A stretch of 61,485 nt of DNA, counting the filler, from Perkinsus olseni (Eukaryota), in assembly GCA_013115125.1 (NCBI GenBank). It is 5 parts of 5 records of this genome, joined end to end, with 100 filler letters (N's around TTAATTAATTAA, not from the genome) between each part and the next. Parts side by side here need not be neighbours in the genome. Positions count along the whole stretch, not along the records: positions 12,348 to 24,592 come from JABANN010000800.1; 4 more parts are not named here. One strand, 5' to 3'. Below are positions 815 through 49,299 of the stretch, in pieces. Within the stretch, counting starts at the first letter, position 1. Each line of letters begins with the position of its first letter. The position numbers and the translations under genes are program-made. A model generated the notes under the pieces. The model was not told where the DNA came from and searched no databases. It saw nothing but the letters and a program-made list of their open reading frames with translations.

Positions 815-3800
815 ATGGAGTTCGTAGCAATTTCCAGCAAGGGTGTCGAGATCTACTCCACGGCAAGCAGCGACCCGTCGAAGCCCAAGTACGAGCTCCC
901 TACAGGTGCCAAGAGCCCTGATGGCTTTACTTACAGTAATGATGGGAGGGCAGTTGACTGAGATGAAGAGGTGGGCTTGGTAGGTCCTGATGGTTTGATG
1001 TGCGGTGTTCTCACCCAGAAGGGTGACGTTGATGTATACGACTGCACCAAAGGCTACACTAAGGTAGGGCTAGGCTCGTCTGCCTGTAGGAGGGGAAATG
1101 TATCAGATACTTACTTGCCAACAACAAGAGAGCTTCATTCGTAACTTCTACTTCTCTCCAAAGGGGACCTTCCTGGTAACTTACGAGAGATACTCCACTG
1201 AGACCCAGAAGGAGAACGTTCATGTAAGACGGGCTGCTGCGTTGAGGTTGAAGCCTGGCATCCCTCCATTCTGCCGCTTAGCTCTGGCATCTCGAGACTG
1301 GGGAGATTATATGCAGCCTCATTCTCAAGCAGTCCAATCAACGTAATACTGGGCCGTAGACGGAGGGTATCTATCATTAAGCGGTCTGTGGCATGCCATC
1401 TAGTCGCTCTCGTAGACCTGTGGCTTCTCTCTCGTCGCTGTGATCGCTCTCGTCTCTCGTCGTAGCAGTATAAATGTGGCATCTATTGCATACTGATAAT
1501 TTATATTTGATCCAGTGATACAATTATTATCATTTATTATACATCAATAATACATAGTCATTGTGACATCCAATGCGATCAGTATACATTTAAAATGTCT
1601 ACCCTCTTGATGAAGGACCTTACTCCTTCGTAGGTATGTGGCCTTGCTTCAAGTGGACCAAGGATGAGCGTGTCTGCGTTCGGATGGTCACTAATGAGCT
1701 TCATTTCCTCTCCGGTCGAAGGCCTCAACTCACTAAGGAAGCCACACTGTGGGTCTGTTGACCATTCCTGGAAGTGTAGCGCCTCGCTTTCAGGTTCAAA
1801 TTGCGGTTACCTAACATAGCCTCCTTCGAGCTCTCTCCTGACTGCAAGACTGTGGCCTGCTTTGTCGGTGAGAACAAGGGTCAGCCGGGCATGGTGAAGG
1901 TACTAACACTGGGAGGTCTCATCTCGCCTCAACCACATCTGACAGGTGTACAGCATATCGTCTGCCGATACTAAGTTGCTTGGCCAGAAGTCTTTCTTCA
2001 ATTGCCAGACATGCAGCATGGAGTGGAATAATGATGGTAGTAGCTTTGGAAGGGATTCCCTCTTCCTAGTTTTGAGCCCGGACTCTCCCAGGTACCTCCC
2101 TTCTCATGACGGTCCATCAGGAGTCAGGCAGAGGCCTGAGTCAAAACTACTACGGCAGCACAGGGTGAGTATCACCACGACTACTGTTTTCACCAATCCT
2201 CCTTGCAGGTTGTATTTCCTCCGGCCCTCCCCTATGGGACAGGCTGGCCAGAATGACCTCAGTCTCTGCACTAATAATGAACCAGTAAGGACTTCTTCAT
2301 CACAGCTTATAGAATCCACCGTTGCTCAGGCGCAAGCCTCTGCCTGGTCTCCCAACACTAACGAGTTCATCGCCTTGGTCGGTGATATGCCCCCCACTCT
2401 GTCCCTGAATGAGGGTATCAGAGGTATCATCAACTCCCCCTGCATGCCGGGTTAGACGTTCCCTCTCAGGTGTCTCCAAGGTCACCTTCGGCCGTAGTCG
2501 ACGTAACACACTCCTGTGGTCGCCAAATGGTCGATATTTCCTGTCTGGAGGCTTTGGAAACTTGCCTGGAGAGGCTGATGTTTGGGATAAGGAAAAGTGA
2601 GTGTAGGGAGTCGCCGTTGGGCTGATGGGTCCTGGCGGCTGGTTTGTCGTGAGATGTGTGCGACCCACTACAGATCTATTGTAAAAGCAACCCACTGTGC
2701 AGTAGTGGCGGCTGATCTGTAGTTATACTCGAGGAAGTGTACGGCTCGTTCCTGGCTTCAGTAATGCTTAGTATCACCAAGCTCCTCCTGAGTGGATGAG
2801 CTACCGCTACCACACCAATGCTGGCTGGCATCATTGACGATAATATCGTTACCCTTTCTGGTTTCAGGCATGTTAAGCTCACTACGATGAACCTGCCCTG
2901 TACGGTACTATCCGATTGGGGTGCAGATGGACGCACGCTCCTGACAGCGTCAATTGCTCCTAGAATGCGGTAATAGGGTTAACGTATCTTAGGTTGTTCC
3001 GGGTAAGATACGGAATGGGTTAGATATTTACTCTAGCTCTCTTTCGTCTGTGCATACCCTTAGCGCCTGTCCTCAGAGTGGATAACCATATTAAACTCCA
3101 CAACTACGACGGCCGCCAGACGCTGGAAATCCCCTTCGATGAGCTCTACTATGCTGGTTGGAGGCCCATGGATACGTAGCAGAGGGAAGGAATCTTTGCT
3201 GTGCGTTCCAAGGGTTCGCCTTCTTAGATCCTTGTTCGAGGATCTAGCACCCTCTCCGCGTGTCGTGAAGGCAGCCACGGCTGCAGCTAAGAAGGCCGCT
3301 AAGGAGCCCGGTAATCTAGGGAATCTTGTGCTCGTGCTTGCAAGATACGCACGAGCTCGAGTTCTTGGGCTGTCAGTCCGGCTACATTGTGCTTTTCCTT
3401 CAGTTGCCAAGGCTAAGGCGGCATACAAGCCCCCAAGTGGCGGAGCGTTCGCAGCTGCTTTGAGAGCTGAGCGCCACGCTATGGAGAAGACTGAGGTGAA
3501 GGTAAAATCCAAATGGTGACGTCGTTGGTCTTTGAAAGCTCATGCAATATCACTGCGTAATACAGTATCTGCCGTCATTGATCGCTTCGGGTCTGTAGGT
3601 AGAGTATCGCCCTCCGTCGAGGGCCGTTGGAGCGCCGGCTAACCTACAAGAGCTGATGAACAATCTGCCGCAGAAGCTGCCTCCAGGAATGACAGTTCCC
3701 CTCCCCCAGATGAATGGTAATAGAGTCATCGGGGCCCCTGCCTCTTGGGAAGTGGGTTGGATTGTTGTCGTGCTCGTTGTTTGCGATCAGCTAAGACTGG

Positions 3801-6927: not shown

Positions 6928-7960
6928 TCACATCAAGAAGGGACCTGGATTCAGCTTCTGTTTGATGCCGTACATTAGGGACCGGGTGTCGTTGGGCGGG
7001 AGGTCAGACTGCAATACCCACGCCATGAGGCCACCCAGACCCTGATTCTTGGCGAAGTCTATCTTCTCCTGTAAGATGGGCTGGGAGTCGAAGAAGTAGC
7101 CATTGAAGGATCCATTGCCTTTGGGGTCCGCCCCATCAGCAACAAGTTTAGTATACCTTGCCTGTGCTCCAGCTTTGTTCTCACCGTACAGAGGTACCTG
7201 CACACGGAGATGTCAAATTGAATGACGGGAGTGCGAAGTGGGAGGACTCACCCCTAGGCCGAATTTGGCGGGATCCAGCTCTTCTTCGTTGATCCATTGG
7301 TTGACCATTGACTTCACCCAGGGGATGTTGGACTACCCTCTAGGGTCATTGTGGTTGTCATATCCCATCCACAGGCACATATCTACCGCACAGGTCAATG
7401 TCCTTGTAGAAGTGGTACGAGCCGCCGATTCTGAAAGATCGTTTCCAATTCAACAGGGTGTAACCCTTGACTTACGCCACCGTGACACGAGCATTCCTGC
7501 CTCCCCTTCTCACGTTGGCCCGCGTATTCTTCATAAGATCTCGGTACTTCTTCCATTCAGCTGTGCTACCGGGGAACTCCCAGTCGAAGTTGATACCATC
7601 GAATAAGTACTTCTCGAACATGTCGTTAGCGGACTCGAAGAACGCCGAGTAGACGCTTGAGTTGGCGTTGATAAAGGGAACCCCCTGGAGCATGAAGGAA
7701 ACTCTAGCATTGTGTTGGTCCGCCGCCTTGCGAGCCATACGCAGCTGGGTGTCATCAGGGAAGGCCTTTTGCAGAGCGCCAGCGGCCGAGACGGAGAACC
7801 ATCCGAAGATGAGCTCCGTCACTCCGCAACTGAACAGGTCCTGGTAGTAAGTGGCGTCTTTGCCGGCTATATCATTCTTGTCGGTGAAGTAGGCGTAGAA
7901 CTCGAAGCCACTACTTGAGCGAATGGCCGTGGCCAAGAAAAAGTTTAGGATGCTCAGCAT
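6928..7960 (-). CDS. Secreted GH18 chitinase-like glycoside hydrolase, spliced
   Basis: Signal-like MLSILNFFLATAIRSSSG; catalytic region FDGINFDWEFPG; KFGLGVPLYG across an intron; C-terminal KIDFAKNQGLGGLMAW. Confidence 0.88.
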
Positions 7961-9291
7961 TGCCTGGGAGGGTGCTGCAAGGGAATGTTTGAGGTGGGGA
8001 ATCTCCTGCGGAAAAGATTCAACTCGAAAAGAGCAGCCAGACCCCTCCAATCACACTCAACCCGCACATCCCCGACTCATATTAGATTGTGAGGGGATGG
8101 GTAGCTGGGCATGCGTGCCGCGCGACTCTTGTGCATGCGATTGCACGCGGGTACACGAGACTGAAGCTACGTAGAGTAGGAGGCATCAGCTTGGGCTATA
8201 ACCGGAGAACCGGTCAAGCATTGAGCAATGGGGCTGCTTCATGTCATCTTCCTCGGGGATCGACCACTCGGGTGAAAGGCCGTCCAGCTCGAACAATAAT
8301 ATGCATGCTAGTGTTCTCCTAGTCTCGTCTGTGGTGCGCGCCCATCGTGCTAACAGCACAAAAACTGTTCATGTGGCTCCGACGGTCGGAGTCTGATCGC
8401 ATGATTTCCTGGGTTCAACACAGTGGGGAAACTAGGGAGGCGTCTACGCGCAGACCGGTGTTGTGAGCAGAGCTTCGGATAACCGTACGCTCCGGTTCGT
8501 CGTCATTGTGGTTGCGCTGGTTGTGCTGCCACCCATACGATAGGAAACCCCTTTCGATCATAATTCACATGCGGAAGTGTTACCATACAGTCGAGCCGGA
8601 TATGAGCACACTAGGTAGTCAAGCGCGACAGTGTCTGGCTATCCATTGGGTGTAAGCTGGTGGTCCTGGGTCATTAGTCTTCATTGTGTGAGCACACCGA
8701 GGGAACCGGGCGTCCCACTCGCTATCGATTAAGATAGTGGAGCGGGTGACATGCCATGACATGTGGGCGGTGCACGAGTACTAACGCCTGCATCGGCCTG
8801 GGGGATGTAAGAGTCACACGTGAAAGGCTCAAGAGTAGGCCCTACAAAGCAGCCCTGATCCACATCAACATTTATGCGACACCCAATATGTACTCGTTGT
8901 GCAATTTATCCTACTGCACGGAACCGATTCACGATGATGCGGTTACAGCGATTCGCAGTCAGCTGATGATCCGCCGAAACTAGTAAGTCATGGATTGCTA
9001 GAACTACCGAGCTGACTCTTGTCCCGGAAGATAAACACATGGGGGAGATATCGAGAATCACTTGGGTACATCCGGCACTGCCGGGCCGGCAGATTCTCGT
9101 CAAGTGATATCGAAAGACAATAAGGTCCATCGATAAGAGCGTGAGTCACCAAGGTACCGATGAGCCATTGTGGCGTGTACTTCTTAGTACTTAGTACTAC
9201 TTCAGAGGGCATATAAGGAGTTTCTGCTCCGATTGGTGAATTTCCTCTGAGGTAACCTCGTAACCTGGCTAGCTGCTTTACTTTGTCTCTA

Positions 9292-12247: not shown

Positions 12248-12347
12248 NNNNNNNNNNNNNNNNNNNNNNNNNNNNNNNNNNNNNNNNNNNNTTAATTAAT
12301 TAANNNNNNNNNNNNNNNNNNNNNNNNNNNNNNNNNNNNNNNNNNNN
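12248..12347. other. Assembly gap with TTAATTAATTAA linker
   Basis: N runs flank a six-frame stop linker; same structure at 24593-24692, 36907-37006 and 49200-49299. Plain N gap at 26487-26584. Confidence 0.97.
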
Positions 12348-12559
12348 CGCGCGATAACAAAGTGCGCCGATAAAAATAAATGCAAGGAAAAAGATACGCT
12401 TCGCTTTCCCGCCGTTCACACTTGCTGTACGCGCGCGCAGCTCAATTCATTGAAAATTTTCGGTAGTTACTGCAGTCTGTCGTTCCTTGAGAAGTCTTCG
12501 GGGTCTGTCTCGTGGATGTATCTTCAACTTCAGCTCGTTTAAGTGGTAATCAGCAATCA

Positions 12560-13609
12560 ATGCGTTACACCGCCCTCATCGCTGCCACCTTATCCGCATT
12601 CTTTAGTGAAGCAGTTCGTTACGACTCGACTTATAGTCCTGTTACTTGGGATGGGGAGTATCTGGCTACTTACGCATGGAATCAGTCTTACTATGCAGCG
12701 TCACCCGACCCCACCTTCATTGACTTCTTCGGGTCCCCCCAAGCGGCGAAGTACAACCGCGGTGATGTGTACCTCAACGTGGCCGATGCCTCCAACGCGG
12801 GGAAGCTCGCCAATCCCCAAGGATTGGCCCGGCTCATCCTCGACTTCCGCGAGGCTAGCGGCAGCGATGCAAGGTTCTACCTGTTCTATGGTGGTGGCGG
12901 CGGCGATGATAAAAAGTGGGCGCCCGACTTCGTTCGTGTGTTCAAGGAGTTCATTCTCCAGTACGGACATTCCGAGATGGGTCGCCTCGGTCTTAGCTTC
13001 AATGTTGAGCTTGGCCTTGATACGTGGTTCGAGATATTCCATAAAGTTGACAACATCAGGAACATCTCGGAAATCAAGGTTCACGACATTAAGGTTGATG
13101 TGACGTTGGACTACCGCAATCCAGATGAGACTCTGGTAGACAAGATCATGTACAAGGCCGATCACGTGACCGTGACCACTTTCAGCAACACGTATGAGGG
13201 CCTCCTAGACATGTTCAAGACTTTCCTCCTCGATACGTGTCCCCAATGCAACACAGACTACTACTGCAACTATAAAGCTCAGGTAACCTTCATGGCCGAG
13301 GGCAACTGCGACACGAAGTCGTGCAGTGAATCGTCGATGTGCGCTTATTACAGCTCCTGCCCTGAGGACCCCAATGGTGGCATCGGCTACGCCTACGACC
13401 AACTCACGAAGGCCTTCAACTACATCCCGGGTAACATTCTTCCCCAGTATAAGTTCGATCACTTCTTCAAACCTGGTGACACTCATTTCGGTCTCAACTT
13501 CTTCGAATGGACTGTTTGCTACTACGGTTACGAGTCCTGGTACGAGATTGATCTACCTAAGTGTGGCTGTGGTTACTTCCCTGCTTCGCAGAAGTGTCGT
13601 AATAGTTAG
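12560..13609 (+). CDS. Intronless secreted protein, paralogue A (349 aa), probable glycoside-hydrolase-like TIM barrel with Cys-rich C-terminal half
   Basis: Uninterrupted ORF; signal peptide MRYTALIAATLSAFFSEA; strong C-ending codon bias; collinear similarity to 17336-18373. Confidence 0.85.
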   Translation: MRYTALIAATLSAFFSEAVRYDSTYSPVTWDGEYLATYAWNQSYYAASPDPTFIDFFGSPQAAKYNRGDVYLNVADASNAGKLANPQGLARLILDFREASGSDARFYLFYGGGGGDDKKWAPDFVRVFKEFILQYGHSEMGRLGLSFNVELGLDTWFEIFHKVDNIRNISEIKVHDIKVDVTLDYRNPDETLVDKIMYKADHVTVTTFSNTYEGLLDMFKTFLLDTCPQCNTDYYCNYKAQVTFMAEGNCDTKSCSESSMCAYYSSCPEDPNGGIGYAYDQLTKAFNYIPGNILPQYKFDHFFKPGDTHFGLNFFEWTVCYYGYESWYEIDLPKCGCGYFPASQKCRNS

Positions 13610-14105
13610 TGTTCATATTTTTAAGTCTTAAGTCACAGTACATCGTACTCTTGGCCGAGTCCACCGGTCAAGTTTTTCTCGACTCAGATTTATTTTATTT
13701 TCCGGGAGAGAGCCCTCTAAGAATCATAGCATGGTCGAGGGTCAGATGCTGTGTAAGGTGCGTGCCGTCGAGTAAGGCAGGGGTGTGGTGCGATCCCCAA
13801 ATTTCGTCTCATCGGTTAGAGTCCGTGCTCTGGATGAGACACAGGTGACCACTTTTTAGCCGAATCCAACTTAAAAAGCAACCTTAAGGTTGTCACTTCA
13901 TTCAGTCTTGAGTTAGTTACCATCTGGAACTACCCTCTGTGGGCTACGCTGCCTGCCATACGGGTAGCCCAGAACTCCGTGGGTGCCTTGACTGGGCGGT
14001 TTTGTGCTGCATCCCTTTGGATGGTAAAGAGTTTCGCCACCTCTTGAACGAGTGAGTGAAACCGTGTAGATGCGGGCGCGCCGATACCTTGTGTGGGAAT
14101 ACCTC

Positions 14106-14217
14106 CTCCCCGCTCAGTAGAGTTCTTCTGATGCTTAGAACCGATTCTAGAATCGATTTTTACACGTAAAATGCGGTCCCAGAATCGATTATGAGTTTCG
14201 GAATTGGTTTATCGAAC
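14106..14217 (-). repeat. Dispersed GAATC/GATTC-rich repeat, copy A
   Basis: Reverse complement aligns by eye with 61139-61240 over about 100 bp and with 28105-28168. Confidence 0.7.
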
Positions 14218-14749
14218 GGTCCCTTCGAGTTTATTATCTCCCTCGACCTCGCAGGATCCGGTAAGTTGGTGGGACCTCTTACGCGTGCCGCTCCCGTAGC
14301 CTCTGTAATCGCCTTCCTTCATCACGTTGAAGAAGCGTACTACCAGCCGTAAGTCGTCACTGTCCCTGCTGAGTTGGTTCTCGAGGGGCAGGCAACGGTT
14401 GTCGAACGCGACTGTTACGCTGTAGCCTTCGTCCCTCCTATGGGTGTCCATCAGTCACATCTCGCGTCTTGGTGCATTCAACGCCACAACGAGGTTAGTC
14501 GTGACGTGGCACGCTCTCGTCAGCTCTGACGCTTCTCAGGATCCTCTCGCACCACCAGTCGTCCACCGGACTCAACCTTCTGTCCAGAAGGCCCTCGAAG
14601 ATAGCTCAAGTAACGTAGCCGTGTCGATACGTCCGCTTTTTCGGTTCTAGGTGTGCCGACACGAGAAGCAAGATTCGAGGAGATTTCCGAGGACACTCAT
14701 CAGAACAGCGACGTGGGGTTTATCAGTCTGGAAAACCGGACTGATTCCA

Positions 14750-15782
14750 TTGACCACATGGTTTTCGACTCGTGACGAACTACTTATCGTGGCAGCTCGT
14801 TTCAAGAAAGTTCATCGTCGATTCTCTTCAAGGTTCCGAGCGAGGGGCGACCAACGCCGACCGCTGCCGACCTCTTCAACTTCCACGAGAGCACTCCGCT
14901 CAGTCGGGAATCAGAAGATTCAACGACCACCATAGACCCCGTCATTTCCTCTGACATCATCGACGTCCAGCACGACGATGATGGCGCATCTGTTCCAGTC
15001 AAGGACTCTAGCTACGAGTATGACTTCGAGAGTAGCAGCTGCGAAGCCGATACTTCTAGAAGCTGTAGCGAAGACAACATTGATATTAACGCACTCGAGG
15101 AGAATGAAGCCCGAGAGAGTCTGGCCATTCACGAGGTTCAACCTAAGATTCCGCTGAGTGAGTCCTCTCAAGCGAGACACATTCCTTTGTGTAAAAGTGT
15201 TCACGGTGATGACGTGGCCGAGACGAGATACCCAAGCGATAATGAGAGAACACTTGAAAGTGCTGCGCAAGGTACGTCAACTTGCGCGAGGTTTCCACTT
15301 CAGATGACTTTACCGCTCCCCTCCCTCTCGATGGCATGGCCAAGCCGCATTGCGGGAGGTCGAAGCGTCAGCGTCGTCGAGGGAAGAGATGATTGTTGTC
15401 TATCATGTTACTTGATGAAGCATGTTGTTACTTCACTGTCATTGCACAGTACGCAGTTGAAATCTACGTGGAGTTTGTAGTCAGTCAGACTCTCGACGGG
15501 ATTTTTACAGCGATCGCTCTGACGGTCCCTGAGGTATCCTTCACTCGAATCCTCCTATATGTTCGCGACCAAATTCTGTCTGAGGAGCGACACGACTCTT
15601 TCTTCCGCTCCCACGTTACACGCTACGACGCCCTTATTGGTGCGTACAAGGTCACCACAAGTTCAAGTTCATGTTTCACTGAGTCATCCATCATAATCAC
15701 ACCGGCCTCTTTTCGAATTTCTTCTTGTGGGTCGAGGGAACTCAGCCAGCTTGCCCAGCTGTTCGCCATTTCTCTCGTCTAA
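14750..15782 (+). CDS. Hypothetical acidic Ser-rich protein, partial spliced model
   Basis: Long open frame ILFKVPSEGRPT...DPVISSDIIDVQHDDD...ESAAQ ending at a GTACG donor, followed by an exon-like EIYVEFVVSQTLDG... segment. Ends unknown. Confidence 0.3.
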
Positions 15783-17335
15783 ATCCCGAGTAGACACTGA
15801 CGATACTTCGCCTCTGACCTCCCTCAACGCCATAATGAGCATCCACTGCGACATACAGTCAGTAGTGATGATCATGCTCACTCACACCAGTTAAAGTCAG
15901 GAAGGAGTTCTCCTCGAAAATGGCCAGTCCACTCAGCGGCTAAGAGGCCAAGGCTTCTGCCGAGGGGCAGGGTCTTCCTGTAGATAATTCTGATGCTGCT
16001 GGTTGGAGGGGAAAGTCGAAAGACTGTTCAGGGTTCAACGATACCTCTAATATCCATCGGCCTCAACCCGAACTTTCGTTGCGCAAGGAACCTTGATCAG
16101 CTTGCCGCTAGTAGACGATGAGTGTATTGAGGCGGAAGGGTTGGGTTGGACTACATCAGTTACAGTTTCTTATTATGCGCCGAACGTCCTGTGTTTGCGT
16201 GCATAGCTGATTCTCCTCAAGAGAGTAAGCTTGGAAAGGTAGAAGACTTTTCACTCTTTCTCGCTTTGAGTTGACCATGAGCAACAACGGTAGAGCAACA
16301 GTTGCTGATCCAGTATAACCCCGTTACTCAGTTCGCGCGCTGTGGTGTAGCGTGCGACGGATCTAGTAGGACGTACGCAGAACGCGTTCGGAAGGGCAAT
16401 CGAATAGTATTACGTCTTGACTGAGCGAATCTGAGTCGACACCTTTAAGAAAGAGTTAATAATGAGGCTGTTTCCGTGATATACTCTACAGCCGAGTGCA
16501 CAGTCGGCGCATTTACTCGGGCTCGCCCCTCGAATCAGGATCCGCGTACCGGCCCTGCACGTGTGCGCACTGATGTTCCGAGATACTGTCAGGGACTCGA
16601 CACGCGGCTAGGGTCGATGAAGTTCAAATACATGCTAGCTGACTGCCTCCCCCACTCTTCACGACGCTTTCTTTGTGCCTCGAATTTAACTCCCGATACT
16701 CGGTTAATAGTGGCGAACTTTCGATGAGTTGTTTCCGACCTGTTGCTGTCACGCGCGTACGTTTTCTCGTGGCGCAGCACTGTTCCATGGCACCACTGCG
16801 TGCTGCTACTCGTCCCGCAGATTTCGGTCGAATTAACGCAGCGCTGCCGCGATTTTACAACAGTATCACGTTGTTCGGCCCGCACAACCTCATTGCTAAC
16901 GATTTCCATACCTGGGAGTAGATGTGGTCTCGTAACTTCTCACTCAACTTACGTGATTTCCAGGGACAGCTCCGCGAAGGGCCGCTGAAGTGCGCGATTT
17001 TCTTATCTTCTACTGCGTTGAAAGCAAATGGCTGGCCGAAAAGTAGTCTACGTGTAAAAGAGGTTCAGGAGACTGTTTTACACCGGTGGTCTTGGGCATC
17101 GGGCCTCAGAAGAGCTCGAATGACACCGGTTGGCCATCCAGTATCGCCGGGACAACTCAGTGTACTGTACATGCGTTCTGGTTGCTGTACGCATGCGCAT
17201 AGCTGAAAAGCCCCGCGGAAGCTCCAAAGAACCAGGAACTGGTTTCTTCTTAACGAACGTTACGACGCTCAGGCAACTCTCCAAGGTTTTTGCGGTAAGT
17301 TCCGTTTATTTTCAGTTCATATTCTAGCTTCTCGA

Positions 17336-18373
17336 ATGCTTTACGCTTCACTTGCCGCTGCACTGTCGTTCGTTGCCGCCGCCGCCGCCGAGGCCCACTG
17401 TATGGCTTCCTATGTATGGCAACAAGACTACTGGACGGGTAAGGACTCGTCCTACGATGACTTCTACAAAGCCCTCCGCAAGGACCACAAGTATGATGAT
17501 TACGATTGTGGTGATCTCTACGTCAACGTTGCCGATGCCTCCAATCAGGGGCACCTTGCTAACCCCAAGGGACTGGCCAAATTCATGGAAGACTACTACA
17601 AGCACAACAGCAAGGGAAGAGTGTACCTGTTCTACGCTGGTGGTGCCAAGGGGTATGATGACAAGAAGTGGGCACCCGAGTATGTGAAGACGTACACGGA
17701 GTTCGTCTACAAGTACGGCCCCAAGTACCACTGGGGACCCATCGGTATCAGCTTCGTTGACGTCGAGCTTGACGAGCATGCATGGAAGGATATTTTCCAT
17801 CACACTGATGAGATGAAACACTATCTTTACAAGCATTATAAGTACGACGTTTATGTTGATGTGCACTTCTACTACAACTACCACTACAAGCACCTGGTTG
17901 AACTGTACATGAAGCGAGCTGATCACGTTAGTGTTGCCACGTACAGCAACACTTACGAGGGTCTCATCAAACTTTACAAGTACTTCTTCAAGTATACTTT
18001 CCCTCATGCCTACGGTAAGGACTACTACAAATACAAGGCGAAGATCACCTTCGTTGGTGAGGGCAACTGCGAGAGCAAGCACTCCTGCGGGAAGACGTCC
18101 TTCTGTGCCTATTACTCTGACAAATACGATGATCCCAAGGGCGGCATCCGCTACGCTTATGACGTCTTCGAGAAGGCCGACACCTACGTTCGCCGTCACA
18201 TCCTCTCAAGGAAGCAGTACGAGCATTACTTCGAAGGCTACGGCTCCAAGTACGGCTTGAACTACTTCTATTGGGTCCAGTGCTATTACGGTAAGGACCT
18301 CTGGTACAAGGCTGGCCTCAAGCACTGTCGTAAGTACCGTTACTACTCCGACCAGTGCAGACGTCATTACTAA
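17336..18373 (+). CDS. Intronless secreted Tyr/Lys/His-rich protein, paralogue B (345 aa)
   Basis: Signal peptide MLYASLAAALSFVAAAAAEA. Shares blocks with paralogue A: GD.Y.NVADASN.G.LANP.GLA, DDKKWAP, ADHV, SNTYEGL, YKA..TF..EGNC, CAYYS, DP.GGI.YAYD, GLN.F.W..CYYG. Confidence 0.9.
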   Translation: MLYASLAAALSFVAAAAAEAHCMASYVWQQDYWTGKDSSYDDFYKALRKDHKYDDYDCGDLYVNVADASNQGHLANPKGLAKFMEDYYKHNSKGRVYLFYAGGAKGYDDKKWAPEYVKTYTEFVYKYGPKYHWGPIGISFVDVELDEHAWKDIFHHTDEMKHYLYKHYKYDVYVDVHFYYNYHYKHLVELYMKRADHVSVATYSNTYEGLIKLYKYFFKYTFPHAYGKDYYKYKAKITFVGEGNCESKHSCGKTSFCAYYSDKYDDPKGGIRYAYDVFEKADTYVRRHILSRKQYEHYFEGYGSKYGLNYFYWVQCYYGKDLWYKAGLKHCRKYRYYSDQCRRHY

Positions 18374-18608
18374 GGACTTGTCTGATGCTACGATGACAGC
18401 GTGTGTAGTCTCTTGTAACGAAACTGTACAAGATATCTTACCACGCGTTAAATCTTCACTTCTTCTTTTCAATTTTTTGTAGTAGTCGATTGATTGCAAG
18501 ACGCTTCTCGATACTCATCATCCGCTCGTTGGCAGCATGCCCGTGAGTATGGGTTTTGTCGTGTGTGGTGGATGGTTGGCAAGTTGTCGGGTCAGCAATT
18601 GTCAGCTA

Positions 18609-20222
18609 TCATCGGTTTAAACCGAAAGACCTGTTATTATAGAGCCAGTAGTATAGGTTGTACTTAAGGCTCGGAATAGTCGACAAATTTTTACGAAGGT
18701 GTTGAGTTGAAACAGTAGGGCACGATTGTTGAGCAATGAGCCAGGTCACCCGGACGACTCCTTCGGGATTGGCAACGCGAGGGACTGAGGACTCTCTGTC
18801 GGTCCACATCACAAGAATCAACGTGACTACTCGGGTTTTCAAGAAGCTTCTGCATCACTTGAGAGCGAAAGCCCTTCTCCCGTTGAGAGCGAACGTGGCA
18901 GAGTGCCAAGCTCATGTCGATGTGGCAGGTAATTTGCCGTGGAGTTCCTCTGGCACCTTTGGCAGAGAAGGGCCGGTACAATCGTCGTGATTGAGAGTCT
19001 CCTCTAACGCGTTTCTTGGCGTACGAAACTTCCTAGCAGTAGAGAAGTGCGGCCCAATTCGAATGCTCTGCCTCTTTGTAAGGAGACTTCCCACACCTAG
19101 AGGAGCCTCTTCAAGCTCCCTCATGAGCGACCTCAAGTGGCTTCCAGATTTTCTCATACCCTAAGCGAGAGGCACGCGCATCGGCAGGGGGTCGGGGTTC
19201 TCCGGAAGACCCTCTTCCTCAACCGGTTCCAATCTCGTTTGATCGAGAGCATAGCATTCCGAAGGCGATCGGTATCATTACGGGTTGTGCGTTAGCGCGC
19301 GGAATATACGCAGGAAGTAAAACAGAATTTTCCAGTTCTTTCCAAAAAAAAGTTGGAAATTCTAGAAAACTTTGTAAGTCTCACAGAAGCCCTCCCTGCA
19401 AAATTTCCCGAGTGCCTGATACGCCTCTCCTGAGCGTCTACAGCGCCACCTAAATGGAACCCCGGGGGCGCTTCTGAGATGCAAGCCAGGTCCGTTAAGC
19501 ACCCCTAGGAAGCGAATGAGACTTCCGAGGCCTCCTGGTTCACGAGTAATAACAACGGAGTGAGTTGGGTCGAGCACACAGTAGCCTTTTGTGACAGATC
19601 CGGCGGAGCACGCGTGCTGGGCGAGCGCTACTTGCAGCGCAGCTCGTCCCAGCTCCTTCTTGTCGTTGAAGCTTCCTGTGATACTCTGCTTACCAGTCTG
19701 ACTAGGTGTTGCGGGATGTAGTCTCAGCTTGGTCAAGGCCGCCGCCAATTCACGCTTCACCTGCGTCTCATGGCATGTTTCATTCATTCCCACCCTGGAT
19801 GACAGTCAGCGTTGTCACCACTCGGACGGGGTTTGAACCCCCGGTCGTTATGCTTCCTAGCGGCCCGAGGATTGGAAGAGGGTGATACTGGAAAATCTTA
19901 TTCAGGGGAGGTCTATTGAAGTACGGAATTCAGTAGTCGATTCTGAAACCGCTTTCCGTGGGAACGATCCATGCCAGAATTGATTTCAAGGCTGCTGATC
20001 AGGGCACTAGAGTGTAGGCTACGGAAAGGACGATCCCGGGGGTTCAATGGCCTCTCCTGATTTCCAAGACCACTTCATGAAGAGGCTGGCTGATTGTGAA
20101 CACAACGCCCGGGTTTTGTCATCTGGAATCAATTCTCTCATCGTCTGCCTCTTACCTTCACCGTAGCTTCTCGTCGGAGCGAGATAGGCTTTCTGTGGTC
20201 TAAACGTTACATCTTCTGCCAT
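18609..20222 (-). CDS. Hypothetical protein, multi-exon, head-to-head with the Sfi1-like gene
   Basis: Start MAEDVTFRPQKAYLAP at 20222; exon-like frames QVKRELAAALTKLRL and LRSLMRELEEAPLG. No family recognised; 3' end uncertain. Confidence 0.3.
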
Positions 20223-20337
20223 TGTGTTTTGCACGTCCTTAAATTCAATCCTGGGAGGGCTCAGGAGAGGTCCACTGAATATGGTCCGATCCCTTTTTCT
20301 GAAGACCTTCCGCTTTCTTAATGTCGATCCATCAGCC

Positions 20338-23300
20338 ATGACCACCCCGTCGGATCTGCTGGCGGAAGCCCTCCTAGCCGAGACCTTCAATACCACACCA
20401 TTCGCAACTCATGTCAACTTGCAGCTGTTGCTGGATGCCTTTGGAAAGGTACTGGAGCGGAGGGGGATTGGCAAGGCCGACGAAGGGGCAATGAAGGCCT
20501 ATCGGGCCATCCTCGCCAAGCACCGGGAGGCCTCTAAGCGATGCCGGGCGGAGCGAAAGCCTTTTCAATTCCGTCGTAGAAAGGACGTCGTCAGATCGTT
20601 CAGTTCGGTGAGCTCGATGGAGCCTCGATCGCCGCCCACTCCTGACGATTCTGAGCGGAGCGATGCGCCTCACTTCGGCTTCGAGGCAGTCTCTGTGATG
20701 GACAGTGTCGTCCAAGAGTCTCACCCTTCCACCACGCCTGGGCGCGTGAAAAAACCGGGGATGGTTATGGACGAAGTTGAAGAGATGGTATCGGTTCTAC
20801 CCAAGCTCGATGCCGCTGTAGATGGTCTTGAAGGTGTGGGTAGGGGACGCAGCCCGTCGCCCGATAGAAGTCCGGTATCGGGTCGTCGAAGGTTCGACGC
20901 CGGGAAGCTCTTTTCCTTGTCTATTCGCTGCGTGAGTCGTAGGGCTGTACTGAGGTGGCGTGAGGGAGCAATGGCACAGCGGAACAACAGGGAAGGGCTG
21001 CTGCTACTGTGGAAAAGGAGAGGGTTGAGGGCCTTTCACGCTGCTGTGATGGAGTGCAAGATGTTGCGATTTCGGGAAAAGTTGGTATCGGCGTATATTA
21101 AATCTGTACTAGGTTGCTGGAAGGAGTTCACAAGTCATCGGAAGGGCATTCGAGTCCGCGACGAGGAGCTGCTCAGCTCAGTGGAGACCATCGGGGATTT
21201 TGTGGAGGCCAACCGACTCACTCGGGCGTTCAACACGTGGCTGGATACGCTGAGATTTCGCCGGGAGTCGGACCGAAGAATCAAAAAGTTTCTGACTGGT
21301 CGAGCGGAGCGATGCATCATTAGATGGTCTCAGGTCGTGCAGGACTGTAAAAAACTGAGAGCGACGACGAGAATCTTCCGGCTGCGTCGCGGCTTGAGAG
21401 CTCTGAGGAGATTCCTTGAAGCGTCCAAGGCGGAGATCTACCGAGCGGTCGAGGTCGAACGATCGATTATGAAGCGTGCCTGGCAGCTGTGGACGCGGTA
21501 CCACTCCTGGCGGGCCGGTCTCAAGGCCTTCTACGCTACTCTCGAGCCCTCCCTCGAGACCATTCGACAGACAGCGGTCGTGAGAATGAGGAGGGGAGCG
21601 TTGAGGACTTGGCAGAGAGCCCATGAAATCAAGAGGGCTTATGATGGTGTTCGCAGGGCGGCGGTACGGAGGAGATCTGAGGCCGTCCTTCGGGAGTGGG
21701 TGACGCAACTTTTCGAGCGGCTGCATTTCCAGCGCGATTGTGTGGTCCATCTACAGAAGTGGCGGTTAGCTTTGGCGCTGCACAAGCTGGCATTTAATAG
21801 ACGGCTGGGCCTGTACAAATCGTCCGGGGTCGGGTATCTAGTCGAGAGAGGCCGACTGAGGGTGTTGGCGGGGGTATGCGACGCTTGGTTGGGGGAAGTG
21901 CGGTATCGACTAAACTGCTCACGCGTGGAGGTATGCGTCAGGCAGAGGGCGGCCACTTCTCTATTGACACGCTCCTTGGGGCACTGGCGGGCCCAGTACT
22001 CCCATCGTCTCCTCGACAGGGCACGTAATGAGATGGCTGCCCTCCAGTGGAAGCGTCGCTGTTTGTCTCGCTTTCTATCAGCCTGGCTCGGTCAGGCTGT
22101 CGATGGCCGAACCGTCCGGGAGGGCCTGTCGGTTATTTCTGGTAAAGTGAAGGGCGCTCACTTTAATGCTTGGCTCATACTGGCAGAGCTCGTCCGGGCT
22201 TCTCGTCTGAAGGTCTTAACGGTGGTCTTCGGGAACTGGTATAGAGAGAGCGCTCGAGTCCGTCGGTCGACCGTCGAAGCCGGCCAGAGGGCCGCGATCT
22301 CTCATCAACGGTTAGCGAGGATGGTTTTGTTCGGACTGAGGGACCTGGTGGGCTATCGGAGACTCTGCCGGCAAGCTGGGGTAAGGAGCAGCATCTTAGC
22401 GAAGCGAAGACGGACTCGTCTCGTCTTCGGGGAGTGGCTGGCTGCGGCCCAGTTGTGTGGTATGGGACGGAGGCTGGAATCTCGTCTGCCGCGCGTAGCT
22501 CTGCGATTGGCCTTCCATCGACTCCGATGGTTTACCGAACTCATGGGGCAGCGCGATGCCGAGGAGATGGCTCGAGCTGTTCTTTGGTATTTTCGAGCGC
22601 GTCTGGTGGCCTGGAAGAAACGGGTACGGTGGCAGAGCATCAAGAGAAGGGTTGTCGAGGGGCGTCGGAGGAAGAGGGTGAGTCTGGCCTTCGGGATCCT
22701 GGCGTGTTGGCGGGTTTACTGCCAACGGAATCGACAGGCGGCAACTCTCATACGGTTGAATTTGTATTCTGGGCGGAGCGGTGCAATTTTGAGAGCCTGG
22801 AGCGTCGCGGGGCGATCGAAGCAGATCGTGGATCGGCTCTTCGATTGTCACGTGAAACAAGTGGTTGTATCTTGCCTTGATGCATGGAAGATACAAGTAA
22901 AGTCAACAAAAGAGCTCCACGATCGACTGCAGTGTCGAGCAAGAGAGCGTTCGACTGCCCTGAAGAAGTTCGCAGCGACAGCTTGGAGAGTCGGCGTCCG
23001 TGCCAGCCGAGCAGCCGATCGTCGCCAACGTCTGAGTCTTGACGGCTGGCGCATGGTAGTAGCATCGAAGGCTCGCCTCCGCCAGAGAGCAGCGGCGGTC
23101 AGGAGAATCCGGGAAGGGAGGACGCTGAGTGGGTGGATAAGAAGGTAGTGAAGGGGAAAATCCGCAATACTCGACGAGGTCCTTCGGGCGTTCCAAAGAT
23201 TGTCATAGTTGACTGCCGTCAGGAGTCTTTGTCGGGAAGCAAGTTTCACTTTTCTCGCGAGGCCTGAGTAGCTCTCATTCACTCCGTGTCAGTTTTCGGG

Positions 23301-24528
23301 AGTCGCTGGCCCTCAACCTACGATGCGATGACTACCTTCACCTTCGTGCTACTCCGCTCCGCTCGAAGTTCCTTCGTGGGTGGTCCGGAGCTGCTAGAAA
23401 GCGCAGAGCCCTCGGGCGAGTGGAAGCCACCATCAACGCAGCAATGGAGTTCACAAGAATGGAGCTGGCCTTGGACCATTGGGCAGTGCAAACCGCGCGC
23501 GCCCAGGTCATGAACGAAATATGGCTCGTCACTGTCCCCGCGGCCCTGCTGCGATACCGAGCGAGGGAGTGCTTGGCGTACTGGAAGGCTCGAGTGAAGT
23601 CTGAGAAGTCCTCGATGAGTCGAGTGGTCATGGCGTGGCGTTACGAACTCCCTCGGATCATCGCGATGGAGCGATCGAGCGAATCCTTGGCGGTGCGGCA
23701 TCGGAGCGGGAAGGTGCTGAAGCAAGCCATGGTGGCCTTTATGATGGCTGTGGATGAGGGGAGGGAGTTGAGGAGAGCCCGCACAAGACTGGCGCTAGGC
23801 AGGTTCAGAAGGAGAGTAGCCAGTATACGAGCTCGCAGGGTTCGGTTGGGGGCCATGGCTGCGGCGAGCAGACTAAGACGTCTTGAAGCGGCCTTCGAGG
23901 GTTGGTGGAATTATCGGGTGGAAATCTCTGAAAGGCTGGAGCGATATCCTATCTGTCGACGAGGTAGATGCCGCAAGGAAATGCTCCTGGCGTATCATGA
24001 GCAAGTGGTCCTTCGACGATCGACTCTGTTGGCGTGGCGTCGTACGTGCCGGGAGAGGGCGGAGGAATCTGCTGTCAATCGGGCTGATCAGGAGATGGCG
24101 AAATTATTGGAGGTGAGTGTGCTTCGATCGGCGTGGAGGTTCATCGAAGTCCCACTTCTCAGATCGATCGACTCTTGCGGCCGGCGTTCCAAGCCATTCG
24201 AGATTCAGCGGTTAGCAGAAAATGCTTTACAGTGTGGTGCAGACGGGCGGAGCGAAGCTGGAAAGGGAGAATCTTAGGTCGAAGAGGGGATAATATCCGC
24301 CTTGGGAAGGTCTGGGCGGTCTGGGCCAAGGTAGTGCAGAATTTCGTGGCGCGCGGTAATGGTCTGTCGCAGGTCCTCGATCACATCAAGGTTCGAAACT
24401 CAACGGATAGAATACTCATGCAAAGTGTCTTTCAAACGTGGCGGGTTGGCGTGTCGGAAAATCGGCTAAAAAAGATGACAGCTTCGCTCCGCTGTTGGTG
24501 GGACCAAGAGGGGGGCGAAGAAGAATGA
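20338..24528 (+). CDS. Sfi1-like centrin-binding repeat protein; very long first exon plus later exons
   Basis: Arg-rich helical protein with recurring L/F-x-x-W units (RAFNTWL, RAWQLWT, VLREWV, FLSAWL, HFNAWL, VFGNWY, AFEGWW, VFQTWR), as in Sfi1 repeats. Confidence 0.7.
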
Positions 24529-24692
24529 GGAGTACCGTTTAGGTACGGAAGGTGAAATAGCAGCGCACAGGAGATGATGTTGTCGTTTCGGGNNNNNNNN
24601 NNNNNNNNNNNNNNNNNNNNNNNNNNNNNNNNNNNNTTAATTAATTAANNNNNNNNNNNNNNNNNNNNNNNNNNNNNNNNNNNNNNNNNNNN

Positions 24693-27600
24693 CGTGTGGT
24701 ACAATGGAGCCGTGATCAACCGCCAGGATTGCTTCGGCAAAACCACCCTGAAGGCGGCTTGGGTGGGGCATACCGACAGCACAGCTGCGCTGGGTGATTC
24801 TATCGGCACACGAGTAGCAAAGAAGGACCCGTTTATCCACAGGGAGAGCCCCGCCTGATCCTCCATCCACACCTGCGCCACATCCAATACCGATGAGAGA
24901 CCCGAGACCCCACTAGGGCTGATATCGTAGTAGCCCGAGGACCGGTCAACCACGCAGACATCCCGGCAGAAGGGGCACTTGGACTCGGTCGCTTTCTCAT
25001 CACTATCAGAGTACTTGGCGACATGTGAGGGAGTGAACATCTCCGTGACGAGGGCCGGCTCTTCGTTGCTAGCTGCAGGTAGGTCGAATCGAGGCGAACT
25101 CGCCTCTTCCTCTCGACGACTTGCAATGGGGAGCGACAAAGACGGCGCTGGTAACGGGTGGACGGAGCGGTAGTTCGTGACAACTACTGATCGACCTGCC
25201 TCGGATGCTTCGTCGGGCAGAGACTGGCTTGCACCTGAAACTCATCATCTTCAACATAACGTATCGAGCGCAAGGAGAAGCGTTCCCCCTTCTCCCGGGA
25301 AAACGAGAGGGCGGCCGAGCGGATAAATTCGACTGTGGTCCACTTCGGTTCTCTCAAGCAGTTCTGTTACCCACTACCTCCCCCACTGCGACATCTAGGA
25401 CTATCAGACTGGTAGCAGCCAAGATTATCAATACACAGACTAACGAGCAGGGAGGAAACTCTTAACCACGGATTGCGTGTACAATTCCAGTATTCACAGC
25501 TGTCTAACAACTCGAGCGCCCCTCTACGTCCCCCCACTGTGTACTACCAGCACGGCCTTGGTGCCTGCTCTCCCCGACAGAAGAGGCCGTCTGGGGCATC
25601 ATGAAGGCCCCTCCAGCTCCTCTGTACGTGACAGGTGATATCGAACTCGAGGCATCCTCCTCCGAGCCGCCAGTCTCCGTCGAGGAGCTCTTGGACATCT
25701 CCAGATGTGTTTTCCCGCTTCGCTCCGTCGACTCGAAGACGAAAACCGACCGTACCCCACCGCACACCCGAGTAAACTTCATCGAACCACTGTCCTGCTC
25801 TCGGAAGACTTCGCCGTTCCGCAGCAGAGCCAGCAGGACCACTCCCCCAGTTTCATCGCGGAAGAGCTGAATTTGCCTTAGAGGGCTCGGTAGGGCTTCA
25901 AACCGAACGCTCTTGCCGACAGTGAAGTCGCCCGGGCCGTTGAAGACGTAGGAGGTAGCTTCGGTCGAGGTAGCCACGACGACTTGGTTCCCTTCACAGG
26001 TAGCCAACGACCGCACCTCGGCAGCCGCCCAAACCTCTACACTGGCCAGCTTTGCCGTATAGTAGTCAAGTCGAGCACCCATGTCCCAAATCATCAACCG
26101 CCCACTGCTATTGAACGTAACACCATACTCCGCTAGACTGCACGCTGCCCGGACTCGACCCACTAGACGCTCATGTGCCACGTCGCCGAAGAGCCTCCAC
26201 TTGTCCCGCAGGATGCTGTAGACGGCAAAGCCCAGCTCGCCGCAGATCAAGACCCAATGGCCAGGCCGGCTCGCGAACACTCGAGGAGGCCAGTTGGTGC
26301 GCATGTACATGTGCGGGTAGGCCACGGCCTTCCACGAGCTATCCGTTCCCCTCGGCAGCAGCATTCTCTCGTGTGAAGCCAATAAAGGAACAGAAGGGCA
26401 GCTCACATCATCTCCATTGCCAGTGATGAAAGAGGGGTGCTCGAGTACAGCAGGGAACTTCACGACGTCACTTTCGTCAGAAGACCNNNNNNNNNNNNNN
26501 NNNNNNNNNNNNNNNNNNNNNNNNNNNNNNNNNNNNNNNNNNNNNNNNNNNNNNNNNNNNNNNNNNNNNNNNNNNNNNNNNNNNCCCCGTAGCCGCTTTC
26601 CTCTTCTCCGCGACCTCGGTCTCGCAGGAGCCAAACTTCGGAAATGCCCTCTACTTTAACGCTTATAGCAACGAGGCCGCTAGGCCCTCCAGCAGCGCAG
26701 GTTGCTACTACTCGATCCCTAGCCGGAGTTCCCTCGGGATGATTGGCCATAAACGACTCCGCTACTCGGGCGAGCGATCGATACTCTTCAAAAGCCAGGA
26801 TGCCATTCGCGGTCCGCTTCATCGTGGACAGGTCGACCTTGGGCGCCCGCTGTTTATAATGATCGGTGTCCAGGAGGAGTATCATGCTACTTGAAGTAGC
26901 CTCGGTCGGATAGGAAATGATGAACAATCTGTGACCAGCGCCGGGGATGAGAGAAAATCTCTCACTAGGTACGCTCAAAGTGCATTCGAGTTCGACAAGA
27001 CAGTGCAGTTGGCGTAGTTGGTGGGACCTGAGCATAAAGATTCGCCCTCAACTAGACCGAACAAGCAAGACTCGGATTCGACCCAGCAGCCTTTCGGTGA
27101 CTAGCCGGGGATATCACCCACTGAGCTAATCACACACTCTTCCCGAATAGCACCTCACATGCCGCTTAGTTCCGCCTTCATCGTCGTAGTCAGTGTCAGC
27201 CTCATCATAATCATAATCCGCCCCTCTCTTGAATTCCGCAGCATCATCTCCGAACTTCACCCGAAAGACGGCCACCAAATGCCGCGTCGACAGCTGCAAG
27301 AAGACTCTGCTAGAATCACCCGACCATGCATGTAACCTGATCGATTAATCAATCCACAACAACATGTCCTGCGCCTACTACTACCCAGTGAAGGTGGTCA
27401 GGCTCTCTTCGGCCGAGTCCAGTTCAGAGCCGGAGTGCCGAGCGTTGGGCTCTCGCAGTGTTGTACCCAGCATGGAGGCCGCACTCCTCAAACGATACAT
27501 GGGAGCCTGTTGCTGTTGGTAACCAGCTGCGTAGAATTGTGCCTGCGAACCAGATTCTGACACCTCTAGCTGATGTTTTCACTTGCAATCACACCTCTCG

Positions 27601-36726: not shown

Positions 36727-37006
36727 CCATTGTCACTTTTATAGTGTTAGAGTTATTGTATGACCGATTCGAATCGAATCATTCGATGGCAACTCCTAAC
36801 GAGGTGGCGTACCCCATTGCGATGAATTAGAGGACCATCCCTGAACTATTCAAAGCACGATTAAACACATTCTACAACCACAAAGAATAAGTGAATTCGT
36901 TGTTCGNNNNNNNNNNNNNNNNNNNNNNNNNNNNNNNNNNNNNNNNNNNNTTAATTAATTAANNNNNNNNNNNNNNNNNNNNNNNNNNNNNNNNNNNNNN
37001 NNNNNN

Positions 37007-49199: not shown

Positions 49200-49299
49200 N
49201 NNNNNNNNNNNNNNNNNNNNNNNNNNNNNNNNNNNNNNNNNNNTTAATTAATTAANNNNNNNNNNNNNNNNNNNNNNNNNNNNNNNNNNNNNNNNNNNN

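Follow-up and report, generated by a model that had tools for sequence, protein, structure and literature searches.

A tyrosine-, lysine- and histidine-rich protein with a predicted GH18-like barrel in Perkinsus olseni

Whether a folded, enzyme-like protein can be enlisted as wall or adhesive material is the question raised by one gene of Perkinsus olseni, a mollusc parasite and major pathogen of farmed clams whose wall make-up is, to our knowledge, poorly known at the molecular level. The gene, here called paralogue B, lies in a stretch of 61,485 nucleotides (the window) that joins five parts of genome assembly GCA_013115125.1, and a related gene, paralogue A, lies 3.7 kb upstream; feature coordinates are collected in Table 1. 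The original prediction saw in paralogue B an enzyme-like scaffold, rich in Tyr, Lys and His, that had been co-opted as a structural component. We find that paralogue B is a compositional variant in an unannotated protist family resembling glycoside hydrolase family 18 (GH18), and we tentatively propose that it is held outside the cell by its unusual residues.

Composition and transcripts of paralogue B

A machine count of paralogue B gave 56 Tyr (16.2%), 38 Lys (11.0%) and 20 His (5.8%), together 114 of 345 residues or 33.0%, identical to the hand count of the original prediction, which had spoken of about one third. Its figure of about 29 Tyr for paralogue A was likewise exact (Y 29, K 18 and H 6 in a protein of 349 amino acids (aa) that ends at TAG). 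Among 25 other family members (alignment A2), the mean Tyr content was 4.9% (standard deviation 1.4) and the maximum, that of paralogue A, was 8.3%, which places paralogue B at z = 7.8; even with p = 0.083, the binomial tail for its Tyr content was 1.2e-6. Lys (z = 4.7) and His (z = 5.3) were also the highest or near the highest in this set. The window has 93 stop-to-stop open reading frames (ORFs) of 110 aa or more, with a median Tyr content of 2.0%; among them paralogue B ranked first and paralogue A second. The predicted enrichment is thus real and specific to paralogue B.

The enrichment also lies at the level of amino acids. Adenine accounted for 49.3% of codon position 2 in paralogue B versus 35.5% in paralogue A, and for 6.7% versus 8.0% of codon position 3. 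The untranslated regions (UTRs) and flanks of paralogue B carried no nucleotide bias, and C- or G-ending codons were favoured in both paralogues (TAC 44, TAT 12). Since adenine is high at position 2 and low at position 3, and the flanks are unbiased, the bias is not a nucleotide or mutational artefact; the Tyr/Lys/His excess is the result of selection at the amino-acid level, not of mutation bias. Tandem Repeats Finder, applied to 17200-18700, found just two repeats, GCC x5.3 in the part for the signal peptide and a 19-nt trace of ACTACA x3.2, indicating that the bias is dispersed and not borne by repeats. The tandem-repeat, low-complexity architecture of 3,4-dihydroxyphenylalanine (DOPA) adhesives and quinone-tanned proteins was absent. 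Neighbouring residues showed some order: YK and KY occurred 10 times each, KHY twice, YKYK once and Y[K/H]Y five times. The 20 YK and KY pairs compared with 12.95 +/- 3.1 in 5000 shuffles, 2.1% of which reached 20, and neither YxY nor YY was enriched over shuffles.

Paralogue B has a mass of ~39.6 kDa, 8 Cys and an isoelectric point (pI) of 8.62 (8.70 for the mature part), versus 4.79 for paralogue A. The GCC/poly-Ala run in its N-terminus (17375-17390, GCC x5.3) varies in length: contigs of runs X8 and X9 have a GCC insertion after 17374, and the forms AAAEA, AAAAAEA and AAAAAAEA occur among the alleles. The signal-like N-terminus with its variable poly-Ala and the 8 Cys point to an extracellular protein, and paralogue B is probably secreted. 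An antisense ORF of 283 aa (17348-18199, minus strand), rich in Val, overlaps the gene; there was no evidence that it is a gene, and it exists because half of the sense codons are NAN, which leaves few antisense stops.

Paralogue B is 100% identical to a database protein of P. olseni (P0059, named 'hypothetical protein [Perkinsus olseni]'), and P0001 is a 346-aa form with one extra Ala. The paralogue B stretch was present in 20 of 24 listed public runs from 12 studies, two of them recorded as RNA libraries. Contigs of four runs (X2, X4, X8 and X9) were aligned to 12348-19000. RNA-run contigs covered 17314 to ~18685 for paralogue B and 12532 to ~13865 for paralogue A without joints, and the spacer between them was uncovered, consistent with two separate mRNAs; contig depth was not usable to rank the expression of the two genes. 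Directly before 17314 on contigs X8 and X4, and before 12532 on X9, stood nine extra letters, CTTGGCTCA, so that three run-gene combinations carried them just before a genomic AG (17314-15, 12532-33). With AG added, CTTGGCTCA equals the 3' end of PmaSL1, a Perkinsus spliced leader with the sequence ACCGTAGCCATCTTGGCTCAAG (PMC3101222). The leader tail at AG acceptors indicates that paralogues A and B both yield mature, trans-spliced, intronless mRNAs. In paralogue B, the acceptor AG is 22 nt upstream of the ATG, leaving a 5' UTR of 20 nt after the leader. Paralogue A was counted from ATG 12560, the first after its trans-splice site, and a GTG at 12512 is unusable as its start because it lies upstream of that site.

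The two paralogues are 42% identical (135 of 324 aligned residues, E 2e-79). Other P. olseni assemblies carry a second allele of paralogue B. Its protein (P0058) of 343 aa is 95% identical and has Y55/K38/H21, and 11 of its 16 substitutions make or remove Tyr, Lys or His (Y97N, Y165H, D229Y, N76H, R332H, H155D, H344E, K78D, K219E, T121K and Q340K). This single allele pair is suggestive of a turnover of Tyr/Lys/His positions while the totals hold. In some public P. olseni assemblies, the gene model of paralogue B is fused to the downstream gene with the long ORFs described below (P0055 and P0057, 581 and 1336 aa), which has drawn the unrelated fragments P0054, P0056, P0060 and P0061 into its 90% cluster.

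Fold, family and candidate catalytic residues

An AlphaFold2 model of paralogue B from a 32-row alignment was a (beta/alpha)8 barrel with a mean predicted local distance difference test score (pLDDT) of 89.6 and a predicted template-modelling score of 0.88. Helices alternate with strands at residues 22-27, 61-67, 96-101, 136-141, 172-179, 197-201, 236-242 and 304-309. Only the signal-like residues 6-18 fell below a pLDDT of 50, and every later block of ten residues reached at least 85; an earlier five-row model had the same topology at a pLDDT of 70. Structure comparison placed the barrel nearest to GH18 chitinase-like folds, in keeping with the enzyme-like scaffold of the original prediction. 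In the ESM Atlas, unnamed TIM-barrel-like clusters scored 0.93-0.94 and GH18 clusters 0.88, the latter below the trust line of the Atlas.

The family to which this barrel belongs has gone unannotated. At E<=1, Pfam gave no family for paralogues B and A and no PF00704 among 19 relatives, and searches of NCBIfam and of PDB sequences (the latter with 5- and 26-row profiles) gave no match. A profile search of 1.84 billion representatives returned 42 relatives at E<=1e-3 and 33 at E<=1e-10. Paralogue B is similar to them over its full length and keeps all ten residues that are invariant in 32 rows (G59, D60, D67, L80, S139, M192, D196, A235, C245 and C257). All named relatives are Perkinsus proteins, of P. 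olseni, P. marinus or P. chesapeaki, and their genes often lie side by side in pairs (Pmar_PMAR007343/007345; FOL47_010061/010062). The sole hint of chitinase or chito-oligosaccharide-binding activity is the automatic UniRef name 'Chitinase' on four of them (P0006, P0007, P0048 and P0063). Topic searches by title and abstract, and searches with the P. marinus family accessions, found no literature on this family or on Tyr-rich Perkinsus proteins.

Metagenomes are the source of the unnamed relatives, and the six loci retrieved were eukaryote-like. A match of 1564 nt for 327 residues at L005 suggests introns there. One locus (L004:1-2029) has two tandem copies, like the Perkinsus pairs, followed by a double-AAA ATPase, and in another the family gene is flanked by genes for a cyclin, Mod_r (ESCRT-I) and the C-terminus of a glycerophosphate oxidase. 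The relatives at L004:1-2029 and L003:778-2019 keep the full SFDVEH, MxYRN and KITIMVE motifs and stand on gene-dense protist contigs that appear to be intron-poor. Unnamed relatives have '...GC' after the N-terminal hydrophobic stretch, as a bacterial lipoprotein would; this origin was rejected on account of the eukaryotic neighbour genes. A scan of 185,579 prokaryote species genomes with one peptide pattern yielded 26 candidate stretches and no confirmed family member. As far as these searches reach, Pfam holds no model for the family, whose known members are confined to Perkinsus and to microbial eukaryotes in metagenomes.

In a maximum-likelihood tree, paralogue B falls within an 11-row clade with A-type proteins of three species, on a stem of 0.98 changes per site. 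In the free tree its placement apart from the other A-type rows is weakly supported, and the composition of paralogue B does not conform to the model; a P. olseni-specific duplication, with B as sister of the P. olseni A, was not rejected by the approximately unbiased (AU) test (p 0.108). The branches of a P. marinus pair amount to 0.85 + 0.16. The stem of paralogue B is no longer than this, so that the direction of change is odd, not its amount. No protein more than 50% identical to paralogue B was found outside P. olseni among the 42 relatives.

By a weak analogy to GH18, D142, E144, Y203 and E242 are candidate catalytic residues. The column of D142 holds Asp in 22 of 32 rows and Asn in 10, that of E144 Glu in 25, and that of Y203 Tyr in 20, Phe in 10 and Ile in 2; all four residues are present in 19 of the 32 rows. 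The DxxDxDxE motif of GH18 is incomplete: paralogue B reads P-I-G-I-S-F-V-D-V-E, which matches it at no more than the terminal D-x-E, and throughout the family other residues (Gly/Ile and Ser) stand in place of the two upstream Asp. At the strand-6 'MxYD' position the Tyr is present, followed by Ser in paralogue B and mostly by Arg or Ser in the family, not by Asp.

In the 13-row Perkinsus clade that holds both paralogues, only paralogue B and its allele keep all four residues. Paralogue A has Asn and Phe at two of these positions. Residue 142 is Asn, and residue 203 is Phe or Ile, in all five A-type P. olseni rows as well as in the pairs of P. marinus and P. chesapeaki, some of these rows also being without Glu 144 or 242. 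The Perkinsus members as a whole are split, with the full set in P0008, P0033/P0076 and paralogue B, and partial loss in all A-type proteins, P0003, P0004 and P0006; the pattern suggests repeated conversion to non-catalytic forms, as in the chi-lectins of GH18. The retained set indicates that paralogue B is not clearly a dead enzyme, and the idea of a scaffold co-opted away from enzymology was not supported. If the GH18 analogy holds, it would be more enzyme-like than paralogue A, and a glycan-directed function is plausible. Y203 could, however, be one more product of the general trend from Phe to Tyr.

Placement of the residues, competing explanations and surrounding genes

Paralogue A has the same residue at only 21 of the 56 Tyr, 6 of the 38 Lys and 3 of the 20 His of paralogue B, and 11 of these Tyr stand where paralogue A has Phe. 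Relative to paralogue A, the gains lie in helices 0 and 2-7, the connecting loops and the C-terminal helices. Among the strands, 1-4 and 6 show no gains; two Tyr and one His were added in strand 5, a single Lys in strand 7 and a single Tyr in strand 8. Altogether the strands, which make up 47 of 345 residues, hold 10 of the 114 Tyr, Lys and His. The active sites of TIM barrels lie on the C-terminal side of the strands, and several loops on this side gained Tyr or His (L5 = YNYHY). In the densest stretch, the best 25-residue windows contained 17 Tyr, Lys or His, nine of them Tyr, at a pLDDT of 92-97.

The original prediction had held that variable positions were filled while the core was kept. 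Burial was judged by a proxy, the make-up of family columns plus secondary structure rather than model coordinates, and by this measure the claim stood for Lys (29 of 38 in polar columns), His (17 of 20) and 18 Tyr, about a third of them. It failed for the 11 Tyr in Tyr-majority columns and the 20 in hydrophobic or aromatic ones, mostly Phe to Tyr; the remaining Tyr fell in mixed (5) or unalignable (2) columns. The column proxy suggests surface exposure for many of the added residues, and another third of the Tyr are conservative swaps in places likely to be at least partly buried. It looks as if the pressure had been for Tyr wherever the fold tolerates it, not at the surface alone. Paralogue B also departs from four near-invariant positions: R88Y, F116Y, C222F and C225. 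At C225 the 26-row alignment gave Tyr and the 32-row alignment gave Ala; with C222 and C225 the conserved CxxC pair is lost.

Our preferred explanation, at a probability of roughly 0.4, is that paralogue B is an extracellular GH18-like protein held in the wall or matrix by an adhesive or cross-linkable coat of Tyr, Lys and His. It starts from what was established directly (composition, level of selection, transcript maturity, fold class and motif conservation), and from these we infer the wall location and any cross-linking. In the B lineage, selection added the three residues to the helices and loops around the barrel, turned many Phe into Tyr and an acidic protein (pI 4.8 in A) into a basic one (pI 8.6-8.7), and kept strands 1-4 and 6 and the candidate set D142-x-E144, Y203 and E242 as they were. 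Outside the cell, the protein would serve as a glycan-binding or glycan-cleaving barrel, on or beside its glycan. Non-covalent adhesion to anionic or sugar polymers, through cation-pi, hydrogen-bond and charge contacts, would be the first means of holding it there, and a second, possible one would be oxidative cross-linking, of Tyr with Tyr or of quinones with Lys/His, as in the KY-rich wall proteins of coccidia. The further step, in which whole folded and possibly active GH18-like barrels, one third Tyr, Lys and His, serve as oxidatively tanned bricks of the Perkinsus wall, seems to us unlikely. No oxidase (peroxidase, tyrosinase or laccase) was found among the 74 window ORFs scanned, and no search aimed at a partner oxidase was made.

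Several findings weigh against a GH18-like protein held in this way. Altogether 31 of the 56 Tyr stand at Tyr-conserved or hydrophobic columns, for example F116 (Phe in 25 of 25 others), F120 (23 of 25), V/I191 and L298, so that many may lie partly in the interior, out of reach of cross-linking until the protein is unfolded or cut. The coccidian wall proteins GAM56 and EtSWP1 are described, in PMC4776368, as intrinsically disordered and processed by proteolysis, whereas paralogue B is a predicted compact globule. The retained candidate catalytic residues fit a plain soluble enzyme equally well, and V141, one extra residue directly before D142, may shift the register of strand 4. The assignment to GH18 is itself loose. 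GH5 and GH1 folds were only ~1.5 Z below GH18 in the structure comparison, and paralogue B did not reach the gathering score of PF00704, which the control ORF 7475-8050 (minus strand) passed with 39.2 bits against a cut-off of 29.6. A GH18 profile (A4) was made from six of the nine Perkinsus GH18 proteins found with the window GH18 exon, a broader homologue search with this exon having returned no match. Aligned to it by hhalign, the 26-row family profile gave a probability of only 7% (pairwise E 0.005), over 112 columns in register from strand 3 to strand 6 (IGISFDVE on DGINFDWE, ADSALMMxYRN on IDMCLWMGYDN); a single-sequence comparison gave the same strand-4 match at 1.1%. A distant kinship of the family with GH18 is plausible on this alignment.

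Among the rivals, the one that survives best, though doubtful, is a freely soluble secreted glycosidase or lectin whose coat tunes charge and affinity (for acidic host mucins, sulfated glycans or sugar stacking) with no immobilisation or cross-linking. The retention of D142-x-E144, Y203 and E242, partly lost in paralogue A, speaks for it, as do the compact high-confidence GH18-like barrel, the pI shift from 4.8 to 8.6, the Tyr and His gained in loops on the C-terminal side of the strands, and the true GH18 chitinase gene 4.5 kb from paralogue A, which would place glycan-active secreted genes together here. But a shift of charge needs neither 16% Tyr nor ~11 changes from Phe to Tyr at hydrophobic columns, and allele turnover at constant totals looks like selection on bulk composition, not on a defined binding site. 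Nor is any activity or ligand known in the family, which has no match in Pfam, NCBIfam or PDB sequences.

Bulk composition would suffice if paralogue B were a sacrificial Tyr-rich decoy for host phenoloxidase or for reactive oxygen, chlorine or nitrogen species, perhaps helping to build the capsule around parasites in clams. Bivalve haemocytes use phenoloxidase and oxidants against Perkinsus, paralogue B is expressed and its secretion is predicted, and both the allele turnover and the changes from Phe to Tyr would fit. Yet a simple sink would not need a carrier as elaborate as a folded barrel with its motif residues conserved, no orthologue of such composition was seen in P. marinus or P. chesapeaki among the 42 relatives despite similar host defences, and nothing in this analysis bears on host interaction. 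We regard the decoy as improbable.

Very improbable, in our judgement, is a redundant duplicate drifting under relaxed constraint, with the Tyr/Lys/His excess as a by-product. The long stem, the loss of the near-invariant CxxC pair and R88, and the lack of a close orthologue outside P. olseni among the 42 relatives are what drift would leave behind. However, the ORF is intact, its mRNA is mature and its fold is predicted at high confidence; none of the ten family-invariant residues has been lost, nor any of the D/E/Y/E set; the change runs strongly in one direction (49% adenine at codon position 2 against 7% at position 3) and is held in two alleles; and the P. marinus pair has a branch at least as long. 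Least probable of all is that paralogue B has no enzymatic role and serves as a reserve or binds metals, in the manner of narbonin and concanavalin B, storage globulins with the GH18 fold; it would stock Tyr, Lys and His or chelate metals through His and Tyr. Against this, the His are scattered with no HxH or cluster beyond HH at 155-156, the signal peptide suggests export rather than storage, and the candidate catalytic residues are kept.

The GH18 chitinase gene of the window, upstream of paralogue A on the other strand and not part of the paralogue B gene, scored 39.2 bits for PF00704 over its larger ORF and 23 bits on 6928-7212 (minus strand). Its product is 93% identical to a protein named 'chitinase [Perkinsus olseni]', and Perkinsus has several such paralogues. 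Together with paralogues A and B, it may form a small cluster of secreted glycan-active genes. Downstream of paralogue B are two long plus-strand ORFs, counted stop to stop, 20188-23145 (986 aa) and 23213-24274 (354 aa), which are rich in Arg, Ala, Leu and Trp and have no Pfam match. Exon-like ORFs with Pfam matches at 50473-51369 (minus), 33992-34531 (plus), 39186-39623 (plus) and 1943-2452 (plus) belong to ordinary eukaryotic genes, their families being aldehyde dehydrogenase (two pieces), kinesin motor, ankyrin repeats and eIF2A. Runs of N, mostly pairs of 44 N with 12 bases between, lie at 12248-12347, 24593-24692, 26487-26584, 36907-37006 and 49200-49299; one pair is just upstream of paralogue A, whose promoter-side neighbourhood is partly unreadable.

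Table 1. Positions of the features discussed, counted along the window
Feature	Positions	Strand	Detail or basis
Paralogue B coding sequence (CDS)	17336..18373	+	ATG to TAA (18371-18373), 345 codons, intronless; RNA-run contigs colinear, jointless
Signal-peptide-like N-terminus of paralogue B, MLYASLAAALSFVAAAAAEAH	17336..17398	+	Hydrophobic stretch of Ala and Leu, seen in the sequence
AG trans-splice acceptor of paralogue B	17314..17315	+	T-rich tract before it; the match of contigs from runs X8, X4 and X2 begins at 17314
3' UTR of paralogue B	18374..18688	+	~305-315 nt; contigs end at 18679 (X8), 18684 (X9), 18688 (X4) and 18505 (X2), which gives only an approximate 3' end
Candidate catalytic D142-V143-E144 (D-x-E)	17759..17767	+	End of beta-strand 4; translation; aligned with GH18 D-x-E at low probability
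Densest Tyr/Lys/His stretch, residues 161-186, KHYLYKHYKYDVYVDVHFYYNYHYKH	17816..17893	+	From the end of helix 4 through strand 5 and loop 5 to the start of helix 5
Candidate Y203	17942..17944	+	After strand 6; aligned with the GH18 'MxYD' tyrosine
Candidate E242	18059..18061	+	End of strand 7; family motif KITIMVE; Glu in 27/32 rows
Paralogue A transcript	12532..13870	+	AG acceptor 12532-12533; CDS 12560-13609; 3' UTR to ~13863-13870
True GH18 chitinase gene	6928..8050	-	At least two exon-like ORFs: 7472-8050 with DGINFDWE, 6928-7212 with GH18 C-terminus

Significance and comparison with known systems

Whatever its role, paralogue B is a natural example of a stable fold that tolerates 16% Tyr and a pI shift of ~4 units, and the unannotated GH18-like secreted protist family deserves a family model. 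If paralogue B were wall-bound or cross-linked, the principle of the tyrosine-rich wall protein would extend from coccidian oocysts to the Perkinsozoa and to a folded enzyme scaffold, with a testable handle on wall assembly. Transfection and CRISPR knock-in are available for P. marinus (PMC8062965). Tanned folded bricks, if real, would be a new kind of protist wall component, folded unlike the disordered GAM and SWP proteins; they could help to explain the chemical toughness of Perkinsus resting-stage walls and could offer a parasite-specific marker or target.

The nearest precedents among alveolates are wall proteins of Eimeria. In PMC4776368, Eimeria walls are described as showing blue autofluorescence under UV, GAM56 and GAM82 as Tyr-rich wall precursors and EtSWP1 as a sporocyst-wall protein with a Lys/Tyr-rich ('KY-rich') region and 7.1% Tyr, and coccidian Tyr-rich wall proteins are known or proposed to be cross-linked into resistant walls. 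Paralogue B shares with them an alveolate source, a richness in Tyr and, as predicted from its sequence, a signal peptide, and with EtSWP1 also a richness in Lys and Tyr; in this it resembles a secreted KY-rich protein of the coccidian type. It differs in that the coccidian Tyr, as described there, are concentrated in one region, whereas its own 16.2% Tyr is spread over all helices and the C-terminus of an ordered protein. Nor is it homologous to these proteins, since the 42 relatives are without exception members of the barrel family.

Mussel foot proteins, trematode eggshell precursors and extensin, with its Tyr-Lys-Tyr-Lys cross-link motifs, are basic and rich in Tyr and Lys (and His), and DOPA- or quinone-tanned and adhesive proteins are typically repetitive, disordered and often rich in Gly or Hyp. 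Paralogue B has the basic Tyr/Lys/His make-up and one YKYK in common with them, but has no repeats and a confident fold. Cwp19 of Clostridioides difficile (5oq2), a peptidoglycan hydrolase with a glycoside-hydrolase-like TIM barrel, and the spore cortex-lytic SleL (4s3j) are also among the closest systems; they differ in being bacterial, in having only 12-14% identity and no detectable sequence relation to paralogue B, and in that no unusual composition is named in their structure titles.

We know of no GH18 protein with 16% Tyr, and paralogue B is unlike GH18 in its Cys-rich C-terminal extension, in the lack of a PF00704 match and in the replacement by Arg/Ser of the Asp after the strand-6 Tyr. 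The fold group closest to it is nevertheless GH18, including its non-catalytic members narbonin (1nar), concanavalin B (6caf/1cnv), XIP-I (1om0) and the tamarind lectin (4b16).

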